Shown: positions 16,607 to 17,075 of the stretch, piece after piece | Position numbering within the stretch: position 1 is the first letter of the stretch | How the letters are laid out: each line of letters opens with the position of its first letter | Virus genome (UHGV): UHGV-0149439 | From: a virus | Reading direction: 5' to 3' (one strand) | Length of the DNA stretch: 29,037 nt | The notes under the pieces: model-generated | The model's database searches: none | Seen by the model: only the letters and a program-made list of their open reading frames with translations | Told to the model about the DNA's origin: nothing | Translations under genes and position numbers: made by a program

Positions 16607-16714
16607 TCAAAGCTGAACTGGCAGGCATCAGGCTGGTTGAACCAAATAACAACTCATCCTGTTAAAGGGATTAATCGTTAATTCCAGACAACATGGCATA
16701 CGAACTTTGTTAGT

Positions 16715-16733
16715 ATTGATAATCATTATCAAT
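16715..16733. promoter_or_regulatory. Fur box
   Basis: Perfect 19-bp palindrome ATTGATAATCATTATCAAT. The 19-mer window 16712-16730 matches the consensus GATAATGATAATCATTATC at 16/19. It ends 12 nt before GTG 16746. Confidence 0.7.
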
Positions 16734-16745
16734 TGAGGGTTGGCC

Positions 16746-17075
16746 GTGAGAAAAGGATTTGTTTGCGTATTTTTCCTCTGCACCTTTCTTATGGGGTGTA
16801 GTGGTCATGTGGAAAGTAATCGACCAAAACTGCTGACCTCTGCATCTCCAACATATCCATATTATGCGATGGCGAACAGGATAGAAGGCTTTGTGGAGGT
16901 GAAATACGATGTCGGGAGTGACGGGATGATTTCAAAAATCTGGATTATGAAATCTGAGCCACAACATCTTTTTGATTCATCAGTTATTTCAGCCATGTCG
17001 AAATGGCGTTATGAAAAAGATAAGCCGGCCCGTGGAATGACAAAGAGAATTCAGTTTAAGTTGCGGTATTTGTGA
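16746..17075 (+). CDS. Lipoprotein with a TonB C-terminal-like domain (moron)
   Basis: Signal peptide with lipobox (RKGFVCVFFLCTFLMGC). TonB-CTD signature PTYPYYAMANRIEGFVEVKYDVGSDGMISKIWIMKSEPQHLFDSSVISAMSKWRY. GAGGG SD; a TTG at 16740 is an alternative start. Confidence 0.75.
   Translation: MRKGFVCVFFLCTFLMGCSGHVESNRPKLLTSASPTYPYYAMANRIEGFVEVKYDVGSDGMISKIWIMKSEPQHLFDSSVISAMSKWRYEKDKPARGMTKRIQFKLRYL

Follow-up and report, generated by a model that had tools for sequence, protein, structure and literature searches.

The window, by which we mean the whole stretch of 29,037 nucleotides that was analysed (virus genome UHGV-0149439), belongs to a lambdoid Citrobacter koseri prophage and carries a gene for a 109-residue lipoprotein with a TonB C-terminal domain (TonB-CTD) at 16746..17075 on the plus strand. 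Control of this gene by Fur is well supported by the sequence upstream of it, and its surroundings support a role as lysogenic-conversion cargo (moron). In our estimate, the chances are about even that the product, as a Fur-controlled outer-membrane lipoprotein carried as conversion cargo, would function as a dominant-negative TonB.

The TonB-CTD lipoprotein

The coding sequence was assigned by Pfam, PDB and fold matches, and starts with GTG, as in all close relatives. A Shine-Dalgarno sequence, GAGGG (16735..16739, plus strand), of which GAGG was conserved in the alignment, is located 6 nt before this codon. The TTG at 16740, given as the start in a mechanical ORF list, was rejected, since both the relatives and the Shine-Dalgarno spacing favored GTG at 16746. 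The exact protein was found as WP_320338333.1 from Citrobacter koseri.

The original prediction of a lipoprotein signal was borne out at the N-terminus (MRKGFVCVFFLCTFLMGC|SG): a charged n-region (MRK) and a hydrophobic h-region (GFVCVFFLCTF) are followed by a lipobox of the PROSITE PS51257 type (LMGC), with Cys18 at 16797-16799 and Ser at the +2 position. The signal peptide corresponds to residues 1-17 (16746-16796), and acylation of Cys18 is predicted. The lipobox Cys was invariant in the close clades and conserved in at least 90% of sequences across deeper clades, while the +2 residue in the family was Ser, Thr, Gly or Ala, Glu in one case, and never Asp. Because Ser (and not Asp) occupies this position, the Lol avoidance rule of Enterobacteria suggests a tether to the outer membrane. 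A lipid tether had been proposed only for "a membrane"; the lipoprotein nature was retained, and the target may now be specified as the outer membrane.

The TonB_C domain covers residues 34-104 (16845..17057, plus strand), and was recognized by Pfam, by alignment with 1u07 and 8rd6 and by fold. The TonB-CTD signature that had been read from the translation was confirmed in the HMM search: 51.2 bits with PF03544 (cut-off of 24.6; E-value of 1.8e-13; residues 34-104), and 47.4 bits with TIGR01352 (cut-off of 27.1). A phmmer search against the PDB matched residues 25-107 with the TonB CTD of E. coli and Salmonella (3e-17), and the domain aligned with residues ~152-232 of E. coli TonB, including the YP motif and the β3 strand. 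Structure prediction gave the same answer: in the AF2 model, α-helices (38-43 and 77-89) and β-strands (48-56, 62-71 and 98-104) formed the α-β-β-α-β fold of TonB CTD, and the best Foldseek matches were 1u07, 7zc8, 2gsk and 2grx (probability of 1.00). The moderate pLDDT (68) was due to the alignment of only 7 rows from which the model was built.

Identity between the domain and enterobacterial TonB was 40-44%. All core positions of the E. coli TonB CTD that we take to be functionally important were conserved, namely Y163/P164 (Y37/P38 in the lipoprotein), F180 (Y54), G186 (G60), F202 (F76), W213 (W87), Y215 (Y89) and F230 (F104), together with the pattern of the β3 strand. Three residues were not kept: Q160 (S34, at a position that is variable in the family), R158 (S32) and R166 (Y40), which are tied to TonB-box contacts in TonB. 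Since these residues are lost and identity is only 40-44%, the binding partner may have shifted.

As originally noted, neither the transmembrane (TM) anchor nor the Pro-rich spacer of TonB is present. In place of the N-terminal anchor for ExbB/ExbD coupling, the protein begins with a cleavable lipoprotein signal, and only a linker of ~16 residues (to approximately residue 33) separates Cys18 from the domain, when compared with the spacers of Rahnella TonB (L004/L005) and E. coli TonB. The size of 109 residues and the scores against full-length TonB equivalogs (NCBIfam PRK10819) agreed with this: 51-85 bits against cut-offs of 265-448, with only the C-terminal 85 residues matched. The gene is under purifying selection (dN/dS of 0.11-0.29), and this value, together with the conserved lipobox, led us to reject a remnant of a tonB pseudogene.

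Fur-like boxes and the low-GC insert

A Fur box (16712..16733, unstranded) was located upstream of the gene from its palindrome, core and consensus match, and supported by conservation and by positive and negative controls. The perfect palindrome of 19 bp described originally, ATTGATAAT-C-ATTATCAAT (16715-16733; inverted repeat I13), is present and ends 12 nt before the GTG at 16746. Within it lies an exact match to the 15-bp Fur core, TGATAATcATTATCA, and its 7-1-7 core (TGATAATnATTATCA; 16717-16731) has no mismatch. The match of 16/19 to the consensus GATAATGATAATCATTATC also stood, although its register is 16712-16730, shifted leftwards by 3 nt from the frame first proposed. Perfect 9-1-9 palindromes alone are not rare, with three in the window (I4, I13 and I19), and it is the Fur-like content that sets 16715-16733 apart. 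By chance, 0.01 matches of 16/19 are expected per window, and two such matches were found in 0 of 100 shuffles.

The reading as a Fur box was strengthened by several comparisons. In an alignment of seven loci, the box was kept while its flanks diverged: columns 1-48 were divergent, and the regulatory stretch of ~80 nt (16668..16745, plus strand) was near-invariant from GATTAAT to the start codon, with further-upstream flanks differing between sub-clades. Fur-like boxes with ≤5 mismatches were found upstream of the gene in ~10 of the 14 lineages sampled (≤4 mismatches in six of these), including most deep clades, against 0 of 342 control upstream regions with ≤4 mismatches and 1.5% with ≤5. Bona fide Fur promoters of E. 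coli (fhuA, tonB, fepA-fes, fepB-entC and cirA) showed 4-7 mismatches, and the box in the window fits the consensus better than any of these sites. Across 90 kb of DNA from related phages, sites with ≤4 mismatches were nearly all these boxes or relatives of the second box described below; the sole other one adjoins cosQ in phage 21. Fur-like boxes are also located upstream of chromosomal members of the family. On the other hand, the Klebsiella clade has a degenerate box, the E. coli clade has another palindrome in its place, and no Fur box was found upstream of the phage 21 homologue.

A simple -35/-10 scan found no canonical plus-strand promoter upstream of the gene, so that its promoter is put forward only as a candidate. 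A putative extended -10 element was read from the sequence, TGTTAGTAT (TGn-TAGTAT; 16708..16716, plus strand), and L010-L018, K. aerogenes L093 (TGCTATGGT) and the P0027 clade (TGATAGTAT) all share a TGnTA...T element at this offset. Transcription would then start at ~16722-16725, inside the Fur box, and such an overlap of box and promoter would point to repression by Fur.

The gene follows a lysis cassette consisting of holins (14746 and 15128), a GH19 endolysin (15564), an i-spanin with an N-terminal TM (16198-16473) and an o-spanin with the lipobox LIASC (16424-16606), and precedes the terminase genes (small subunit, 18218; large subunit, 18740). It lies in an insert between the spanins and cos/terminase with a GC content of 40-45%, lower than that of the flanks (50-56%), and the gene and box occur on different phage backbones with differing endolysins and terminases. 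This position, the low GC content, the varied backbones and a terminator all agree with the earlier description as a moron after the lysis cassette. Since no terminator was found between the o-spanin stop (16606) and the TonB_C gene, the lipoprotein is probably also produced late in lytic growth.

The next gene encodes an Ivy-family inhibitor of C-type lysozyme (17205..17627, plus strand) with a signal peptide and a CKPHNC motif (Pfam Ivy, 1.3e-19; NCBIfam Ivy, 1.6e-33, under the equivalog cut-off), which is missing from related phages that retain the TonB_C gene. No terminator was detected between the two genes, which are possibly co-transcribed; "host-environment conversion operon" is therefore an equally fair description. 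A GC-rich hairpin with a T-run (17645..17664, unstranded), identified by a terminator scan and inspection of the sequence, closes this unit, and is probably bidirectional, also ending a convergent minus-strand unit.

This convergent unit is preceded by a second Fur-like box, AATGATAACCATTATCAAT (17968..17986, unstranded), 1.25 kb from the first, which matches 16/19 of the consensus with one mismatch in the core and overlaps a promoter-like site on the minus strand (TTAACT-16-TATCAT; 17999 to 17972). The corresponding boxes in L008 and L096 match 17/19 with a perfect core, and their outer flank is divergent. A structured leader or candidate small RNA follows (17882..17966, minus strand): a 5' hairpin (GUGUCGGC...GCCGACAC), a CUCUCCUG stretch, and a GC hairpin followed by CUUUUC. 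Its fold energy was -37.2 kcal/mol (z of -3.46), and the leader of L008 contained one compensatory change (C-G to U-A) and one G-C to G-U. No Rfam family was found for the 17.6-18.3 kb region. PrrF was rejected as the identity of the leader (19 bits against 90, the level of chance), as were the Esr41 and Pas sRNAs, whose loci differ with no link. Pairing of the RNA candidate with all translation-initiation regions of the window (RNAduplex) was uninformative. Neither the locus nor its minus-strand RNA candidate had a nucleotide-level match among phage records or among complete E. coli genomes; the RNA candidate matched no further contig in an exact-pattern scan of IMG/VR.

Beyond the leader, a conserved ORF of 55 residues (17709..17876, minus strand; Shine-Dalgarno sequence GGAG) runs convergently with TonB_C-Ivy and had been missed by the gene callers. 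Its frame is kept in L008 and L096 (82% nucleotide identity), with dN/dS of 0.21 and differences by codon position of 9/7/14 in favor of the third. This ORF is likely to be the cargo of the second Fur-box promoter.

Distribution of the family

In phage 21, Stx1a phages and Klebsiella phages, the corresponding slot is filled by homologues that are named only "TonB family protein"; annotated cases are those of phage 21, Stx1a phages, JLK-2012, a CP-933N-type prophage and a Klebsiella phage. The original prediction knew of no described prophage system of this kind: homologues were in fact already annotated in phages, while none has a described function. Our literature search found neither a published function or experiment for any family member nor a described phage TonB-domain protein, the genome announcement of phage 21 does not mention the gene, and PADLOC matched no known defence system.

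The gene was present in 417 of 5426 complete E. coli genomes (~8%), and chromosomal members were found in Erwinia/Pantoea, Rahnella and Gibbsiella, next to ordinary neighbors (a LacI regulator, DUF1440, dbpA, ahpCF and PTS genes). The family is widespread and not prophage-specific. A scan of genome contigs yielded only true Rahnella TonB (L004/L005), which was not counted in the family.

Two contexts involve bacterial import machinery, each in a single case. One member (P0100) divergently adjoins a gene for a pore-forming bacteriocin, accompanied by an immunity-like gene and a LexA box; the best PDB matches of the bacteriocin were colicin Ib, pyocin S5 and colicin Ia (TonB-dependent). One K. 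oxytoca prophage carries the TonB_C gene together with a gene for a TolA domain III lipoprotein, and a similar TolA lipoprotein is carried as a moron by phage mEp460. The TolA domain III lipoprotein is the Tol-side equivalent of the TonB_C lipoprotein.

Proposed function and alternative explanations

For a dominant-negative TonB, we infer a decoy mechanism with binding to TonB boxes and a protective phenotype. Because the Fur operator covers the probable transcription start, the promoter of the gene would be silent in cells replete with iron and active under iron starvation, when the outer membrane fills with TonB-dependent receptors. On its linker of ~16 residues, the domain would sit directly beneath TonB-dependent transporters (TBDT) and, like TonB, bind by β-strand augmentation to the TonB boxes of these transporters and of incoming group-B bacteriocins, without force transmission. 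Productive TonB coupling at the outer membrane would decrease, and TonB-dependent colicins, microcins and T1/phi80-type phages would enter less readily, at some cost in siderophore uptake. The same design is found in chromosomal genes of other Enterobacterales and in at least one colicin-Ib-like bacteriocin locus. This reading is supported because an exported TonB domain inhibits import, and by the bacteriocin-linked member and the prophage with a TolA lipoprotein; overproduction of the periplasmic TonB domain, as cited in PMC9841981, inhibits TBDT iron import. However, the TonB-box contact residues Q160, R158 and R166 are not kept, an inhibitor of iron uptake that is induced at iron scarcity is costly, and the chromosomal non-phage members under the same control argue that the role may be primarily physiological.

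The last point leads to an alternative that we consider unlikely, in which a TonB domain at the outer membrane aids uptake as a normal member of the Fur regulon. The domain may hold binding proteins of the FhuD or BtuF type, or ligand-loaded transporters, under the outer membrane; such periplasmic binding proteins are reported to contact TonB. For the phage, it would be a captured host fitness gene for iron-poor animal hosts, beside Ivy. The chromosomal members in ordinary neighborhoods with Fur-like boxes, the pairing with Ivy as a gene for evasion of host defence, and the purifying selection all agree with this role, but competition with TonB is to be expected from a domain that occupies TonB boxes with no energy source, and the patchy distribution of the family, often on mobile elements, differs from that of core uptake components. 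The sole experimental precedent (PMC9841981) is also one of inhibition. An envelope or surface function is improbable: the fold would bind peptidoglycan or abundant outer-membrane proteins and confer stability or serum resistance like Bor. The slot is the same as that of bor (phage 21 has both bor and the TonB_C gene there), the protein is a predicted outer-membrane lipoprotein, and the TonB CTD is reported to associate with peptidoglycan, Lpp and OmpA. Nevertheless, the residues conserved in the family are those of the TonB core and the β3 set and form no new surface, and the import machinery is indicated by Fur control as well as by the bacteriocin and TolA contexts.

The two remaining explanations derive from the position beside the lysis genes. 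It is quite improbable that the Fur-like box does not work in this phage and that TonB_C is expressed only on the late Q-antiterminated lysis transcript, e.g. for a receptor block at or after lysis. The missing terminator after 16606, the missing canonical plus-strand promoter, the phage 21 homologue without a Fur box and the differing palindrome of the E. coli clade are consistent with late-only expression. Against it, the perfect 7-1-7 core is conserved amid diverging flanks, there is a second box at a distance of 1.25 kb, chromosomal members without a late transcript have boxes as well, and the 342 control regions and the classical promoters both favor a genuine site. A lysis accessory or spanin-like protein is suggested by the best PHROG match (phrog_1267, "Rz-like spanin"; E-value of 1.3e-30 over the full length) and by the adjoining spanin genes, but is extremely unlikely, and we reject a spanin identity: a complete i-/o-spanin pair is already present upstream, the fold is globular with neither TM nor coiled coil, and no lysis genes are located close to the chromosomal members. 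The PHROG label is most simply explained by mis-annotation from gene position.

A dominant-negative TonB would have its closest likeness in engineered periplasmic TonB fragments, in which the CTD is likewise in the periplasm without a TM anchor and without ExbB/ExbD coupling. These fragments are soluble, overproduced and identical to the host protein, whereas the TonB_C lipoprotein is natural, lipid-anchored, 40-44% identical and Fur-controlled. Howard, Herrmann, Stratilo and Braun reportedly observed in 2001 that C-terminal parts of TonB fused to a signal sequence inhibited infection by phi80 and killing by colicin M. TonB itself (1u07, 2gsk, 2grx and 8rd6) shares the fold and core motifs (YP, aromatic cluster and β3), and its gene is also regulated by Fur; however, it has a TM helix and a Pro-rich spacer and is anchored in the opposite membrane, while the lipoprotein lacks both and does not conserve Q160, R158 and R166.

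Small outer-membrane lipoproteins encoded by phages also include Cor (phi80, N15, HK022 and mEp phages) and Llp (T5). Cor is a prophage lipoprotein that inactivates FhuA from the periplasmic side and so excludes superinfecting phages. Cor and Llp have no sequence relationship with the TonB_C lipoprotein, which matched only TonB_C, phrog_1267 and phrog_34172, and are specific to FhuA, whereas a decoy of TonB would act through the shared TonB box on many receptors and bacteriocins. To our knowledge, neither Cor nor Llp is controlled by Fur. Llp shuts FhuA from the periplasmic side and excludes superinfecting phages (PMC9586334; bioRxiv 2026). Bor/Iss of lambda and phage 21 is likewise outer-membrane lipoprotein cargo in the spanin-cos slot, but has an unrelated fold, a role in serum resistance, and no link to TonB or iron. 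Genes of mobile elements induced by low iron are also represented by stx1AB of Stx1 phages and the Esr41 sRNA of the EHEC island SpLE1. Expression of stx1 is controlled by iron and Fur. The former is a toxin and the latter a base-pairing RNA, which affects receptor synthesis, while the TonB_C lipoprotein would affect coupling. Esr41 represses cirA, chuA and bfr, and confers resistance to colicins Ia and Ib with a fitness cost in low iron (PMC5286369), the same trade-off as that proposed here.

A broader extension is possible but rather doubtful. The family as a whole would be a natural dominant-negative "cap" on TonB boxes, with which bacteria, bacteriocin loci and temperate phages shut out group-B colicins, microcins and T1/phi80-type phages at the very time when receptors accumulate in the iron-starved outer membrane. 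TolA domain III lipoproteins would be the parallel for Tol, and the insert in this prophage would be a conversion island switched by Fur from two promoters (TonB_C-Ivy, with the leader and the 55-residue ORF running convergently).

TonB-dependent transporters admit siderophores, vitamin B12, group-B colicins, microcins, sideromycin and "Trojan-horse" antibiotics, and many phages. If the lipoprotein acts as a dominant-negative TonB, it would represent a new class of superinfection-exclusion and bacteriocin-tolerance factor, and would show how prophages of the Stx, Klebsiella and C. koseri types alter susceptibility to colicins, phages and siderophore-antibiotics, C. koseri being a neonatal pathogen. 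It would also provide a ready protein scaffold for blocking TonB, which has already been proposed as an antibiotic target. Even with a positive role in uptake, a conserved Fur-regulated lipoprotein with a TonB domain would be an unrecognised part of enterobacterial iron biology.

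A TonB C-terminal domain lipoprotein

The TonB_C gene (109 codons; 16746-17075, plus strand) starts with GTG, which is preceded by a Shine-Dalgarno sequence (GAGGG; 16735-16739), and the N-terminus of its product reads MRKGFVCVFFLCTFLMGC|SG, a classic lipoprotein signal. Pfam PF03544 was matched with 51.2 bits (cut-off: 24.6), phmmer aligned residues 25-107 with the solved C-terminal domains (CTD) of E. coli and Salmonella TonB (3e-17), and the nearest structures to an AF2 model (pLDDT 68) were the TonB CTD entries 1u07, 2gsk, and 2grx. The membrane anchor and proline-rich rod of TonB were absent from the 109-aa protein, and full-length TonB equivalog models scored far below their cut-offs. 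The original prediction of a lipoprotein signal and a TonB CTD without anchor or spacer was thus borne out, the domain by both the HMM search and structure prediction. Since the lipobox was kept throughout the phage relatives and dN/dS of the mature part was 0.11-0.29, the gene was regarded as functional, and a tonB remnant was ruled out.

In the alignment to TonB, the β3 pattern was retained together with the YP motif and the aromatic and glycine positions; Q160, R158, and R166 were not retained. Lipoproteins are sorted by the Lol rule, under which Ser at +2 predicts transfer to the outer membrane. A linker of ~16 residues would be long enough for the domain to sit under a barrel.

The protein also matched phrog_1267, the PHROG family of these TonB_C lipoproteins, which is labelled 'Rz-like spanin' (lysis). 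This label most likely reflects gene position alone, and as a mis-annotation it will propagate into phage annotations. The i-spanin (16198-16473) and overlapping o-spanin (16424-16606) are located upstream of the TonB_C gene.

Fur-like boxes in the window and in relatives

A perfect 9-1-9 palindrome read from the sequence, ATTGATAAT-C-ATTATCAAT (16715-16733; inverted repeat I13), lies 12 bases before the GTG. Three such palindromes are present in the window, and therefore the symmetry alone is not remarkable. This one contains the exact 7-1-7 Fur core TGATAATnATTATCA (16717-16731) and matches the 19-bp Fur consensus GATAATGATAATCATTATC at 16 of 19 positions (register 16712-16730), for which the chance expectation is 0.01 per window; palindrome, consensus match, and spacing were all as first described. 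When the two Citrobacter sub-clades were compared, the upstream DNA was scrambled up to ~80 nt before the start and then almost invariant through the box, the sole change in the core being at the free central base. As a positive control, the best sites at the E. coli promoters fhuA, tonB, fepA-fes, fepB-entC, and cirA showed 5, 7, 6, 4, and 5 mismatches, respectively; with three mismatches and a perfect core, the box in the window is stronger than all five. Among 342 other upstream regions of these loci, used as a negative control, a site with ≤4 mismatches was never seen, and 1.5% had one with ≤5. In 90 kb of scanned phage DNA, sites with ≤4 mismatches were nearly all these boxes or relatives of the second box (see below), the one exception adjoining cosQ of phage 21. 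A simple promoter scan found no -35/-10 pair on the plus strand before the gene. A conserved extended -10 (TGnTAGTAT; 16708-16716, plus strand) is a putative promoter element, from which transcription would begin within the box.

All homologues found by tblastn followed the lysis cassette and preceded cos or terminase. They occurred in phage 21 (CPT_21_73, annotated 'TonB C-terminal domain protein'), Stx1a-converting phages, JLK-2012, ev017, and Perceval (annotated 'tonB-like ... CP-933N'), and Klebsiella phage ST13-OXA48phi12.4. There were 217 matches in IMG/VR. Among 5426 complete E. coli genomes, the E. coli form was found in 417, in every case on the chromosome, with up to 4 copies and under the sole name 'TonB family protein'. 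Upstream elements of these and more distant lineages were scored by their number of mismatches, against either the 15-bp core or the 19-mer consensus. One core mismatch was found in the P0027 clade (49% identity; the same element, AGTATTGAgAATtATTATCAAT), the L130-132 clade (TGATAAGCATTATCA), and Erwinia/Pantoea (P0106; TGAGAATGATTATCA), and two in K. aerogenes; the boxes of Gibbsiella (P0036), P0042, and P0100 had 4-5 mismatches of 19, and that of the Klebsiella phage clade (TGATAAT-gttg-ATTATCA) had 5-7 of 19. No Fur-like box was found upstream in phage 21 and L129. Fur control of the TonB_C gene, as originally proposed, is strongly supported at the sequence level by the conserved footprint, recurrence across clades, and both controls.

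In the E. coli/Stx-phage clade (L003, 3414-3430; L051-L091), a different perfect 8-1-8 palindrome, AGAATAAGaCTTATTCT, takes the position of the Fur box, with 13/19 matches to the consensus (6 mismatches); it may bind Fur weakly or serve a different regulator. Phage 21 retains just half of this palindrome.

Cargo genes around the lysis cassette

The window is a lambdoid Citrobacter koseri prophage, and its exact TonB_C protein (WP_320338333.1) is carried on a 4.75-Mb chromosome. The genes run in the order Q antiterminator, a low-GC 283-aa ORF, an isrI-like RNA, two holins, GH19 endolysin, spanins, TonB_C gene, an Ivy-family gene, a hairpin terminator (17645-17664), a probable cos, and the small and large terminase genes. 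GC content is 40-45% over 16.6-17.7 kb and 50-56% on either side. Since no terminator was found between the spanins and the TonB_C gene, late transcripts should also read into the latter. Three related Citrobacter prophages with other endolysins and terminases (L008, L009, and L096) carry the same TonB_C gene and box without Ivy, and the cassette is mobile among phages. The Ivy-family gene (17205-17627; profile matches) encodes a prophage-borne inhibitor of C-type (vertebrate) lysozyme with the CKPHNC motif. Present in the C. koseri prophage and missing from sister phages that retain the TonB_C gene, the Ivy-family gene resembles a moron inserted in another moron, and likely serves host-defence evasion.

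A second box, AATGATAACCATTATCAAT (17968-17986), is a near-copy of the first, and overlaps a promoter-like site on the minus strand. It is followed on that strand by an 85-nt leader or small-RNA candidate (17966-17882) with a strong fold (z -3.5), one compensatory pair change in L008, and no matching Rfam family, and then by a 55-aa ORF with a Shine-Dalgarno sequence (17876-17709), which was missed by gene callers; L008 and L096 preserve the frame of this ORF (dN/dS 0.21). In both prophages, the second box matches at 17/19 with a perfect core. This unit (17709-17999, minus strand) runs towards TonB_C-Ivy and has its terminator hairpin in common with it. The insert thus consists of two convergent units, each with a Fur-like box.

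A third, weaker Fur-core-like site, TGATAATAATTCCCA (18048-18062), and a probable cosN, GGGGGCGAGGACA (about 18098-18112), lie upstream of the small terminase gene, and the Klebsiella phage (L001, 7107-7125) has a sequence similar to the second box, TTGATAATGGTTATC, adjoining its terminase gene; Fur-like boxes cluster near cos.

At 14564-14660, the Rfam family isrI (an Hfq-binding sRNA of Salmonella islands) was matched just above threshold (47.5; gathering score: 45), and the location of this RNA between the post-Q ORF and holin suggests that phages of this type use it as their late-promoter leader. The 283-aa ORF (13428-14279; GC 33-41%), between Q and the lysis genes, gave a weak DUF5677 match and none in PHROG, PADLOC, or NCBIfam; it is another cargo gene.

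Wider family and a possible decoy function

In an all-against-library HMMER search, matches were mostly genuine TonBs and multidomain proteins; ~20 clusters of the top 150 were 96-152 aa proteins with a full-length match, most with a lipobox. Named members belonged to Gibbsiella, Erwinia/Pantoea, and Rahnella, and the contexts were chromosomal and unremarkable: Usp/acetyltransferase/PTS; ahpCF; a LacI regulator with DUF1440; and dbpA with mgtC. A DUF1440 membrane protein neighbours the chromosomal lipoprotein gene of L106 (4738-5301), and another is encoded just upstream of the holin in the Klebsiella phage (L001, 1-403), which also has a TonB_C gene; the two genes may have been captured together, or the association may be accidental.

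Two contexts are more informative. In a chromosomal island adjoining slt (L104, 1581-3732), the TonB_C lipoprotein gene, which has Fur-like repeats, and the gene of a 427-aa pore-forming bacteriocin are adjacent and divergent. Their common spacer contains a LexA box, CTGTATGCATAAACAG, and a membrane protein encoded on the opposite strand is immunity-like. The pore domain is closest to those of three TonB-dependent bacteriocins, colicin Ib, pyocin S5, and colicin Ia. The bacteriocin has a possible TonB box, STMSV (residues 36-40). In a K. oxytoca prophage (L097), the TonB_C lipoprotein is accompanied by a 141-aa lipoprotein of TolA domain III only (1735-2160, downstream of Q; lipobox SLAGC; NCBIfam TolA, 3e-38), and phage mEp460 (L138, mEp460_ev081; 3504-3932) carries a related 'TolA protein' lipoprotein as a moron downstream of Q. 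Such TolA lipoproteins may serve as the equivalent decoy on the Tol route, which group-A colicins and filamentous phages use.

By β-augmentation through strand β3, the TonB CTD binds the TonB box of transporters and group-B colicins (PMC11658791), and an overproduced periplasmic TonB domain is reported to inhibit TBDT iron import (Howard 2001, as cited in PMC9841981). The TonB_C lipoprotein may compete for TonB boxes without transmitting force, from a tether at the place where receptors and the N-termini of incoming bacteriocins emerge, and Fur derepression would switch it on at times of receptor abundance. The host would gain tolerance to TonB-dependent colicins, microcins, and phages at the price of slower siderophore uptake, a trade-off comparable to that imposed by the MGE-encoded sRNA Esr41 (PMC5286369). 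The decoy function is plausible from sequence, and the bacteriocin- and TolA-linked members fit it, each as a single case. Its cost and the existence of chromosomal family members speak for a less likely alternative, a positive accessory role in iron uptake; to the full explanation, a Fur-controlled outer-membrane TonB-CTD decoy, we assign an even chance.

The lipoprotein falls outside the TonB energy-transducer family. Its proposed action is most like that of engineered periplasmic TonB fragments, and it may be likened to Cor and Llp by analogy, but it belongs to none of these groups. No functional description of the gene family was found in the literature, although it is annotated in well-known phages, and the decoy function is cheaply testable. 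In its proposed role it would be one more of the phage lipoproteins that shut TonB-dependent receptors, by a new means, and the Fur-linked family to which it belongs is unexpectedly broad.
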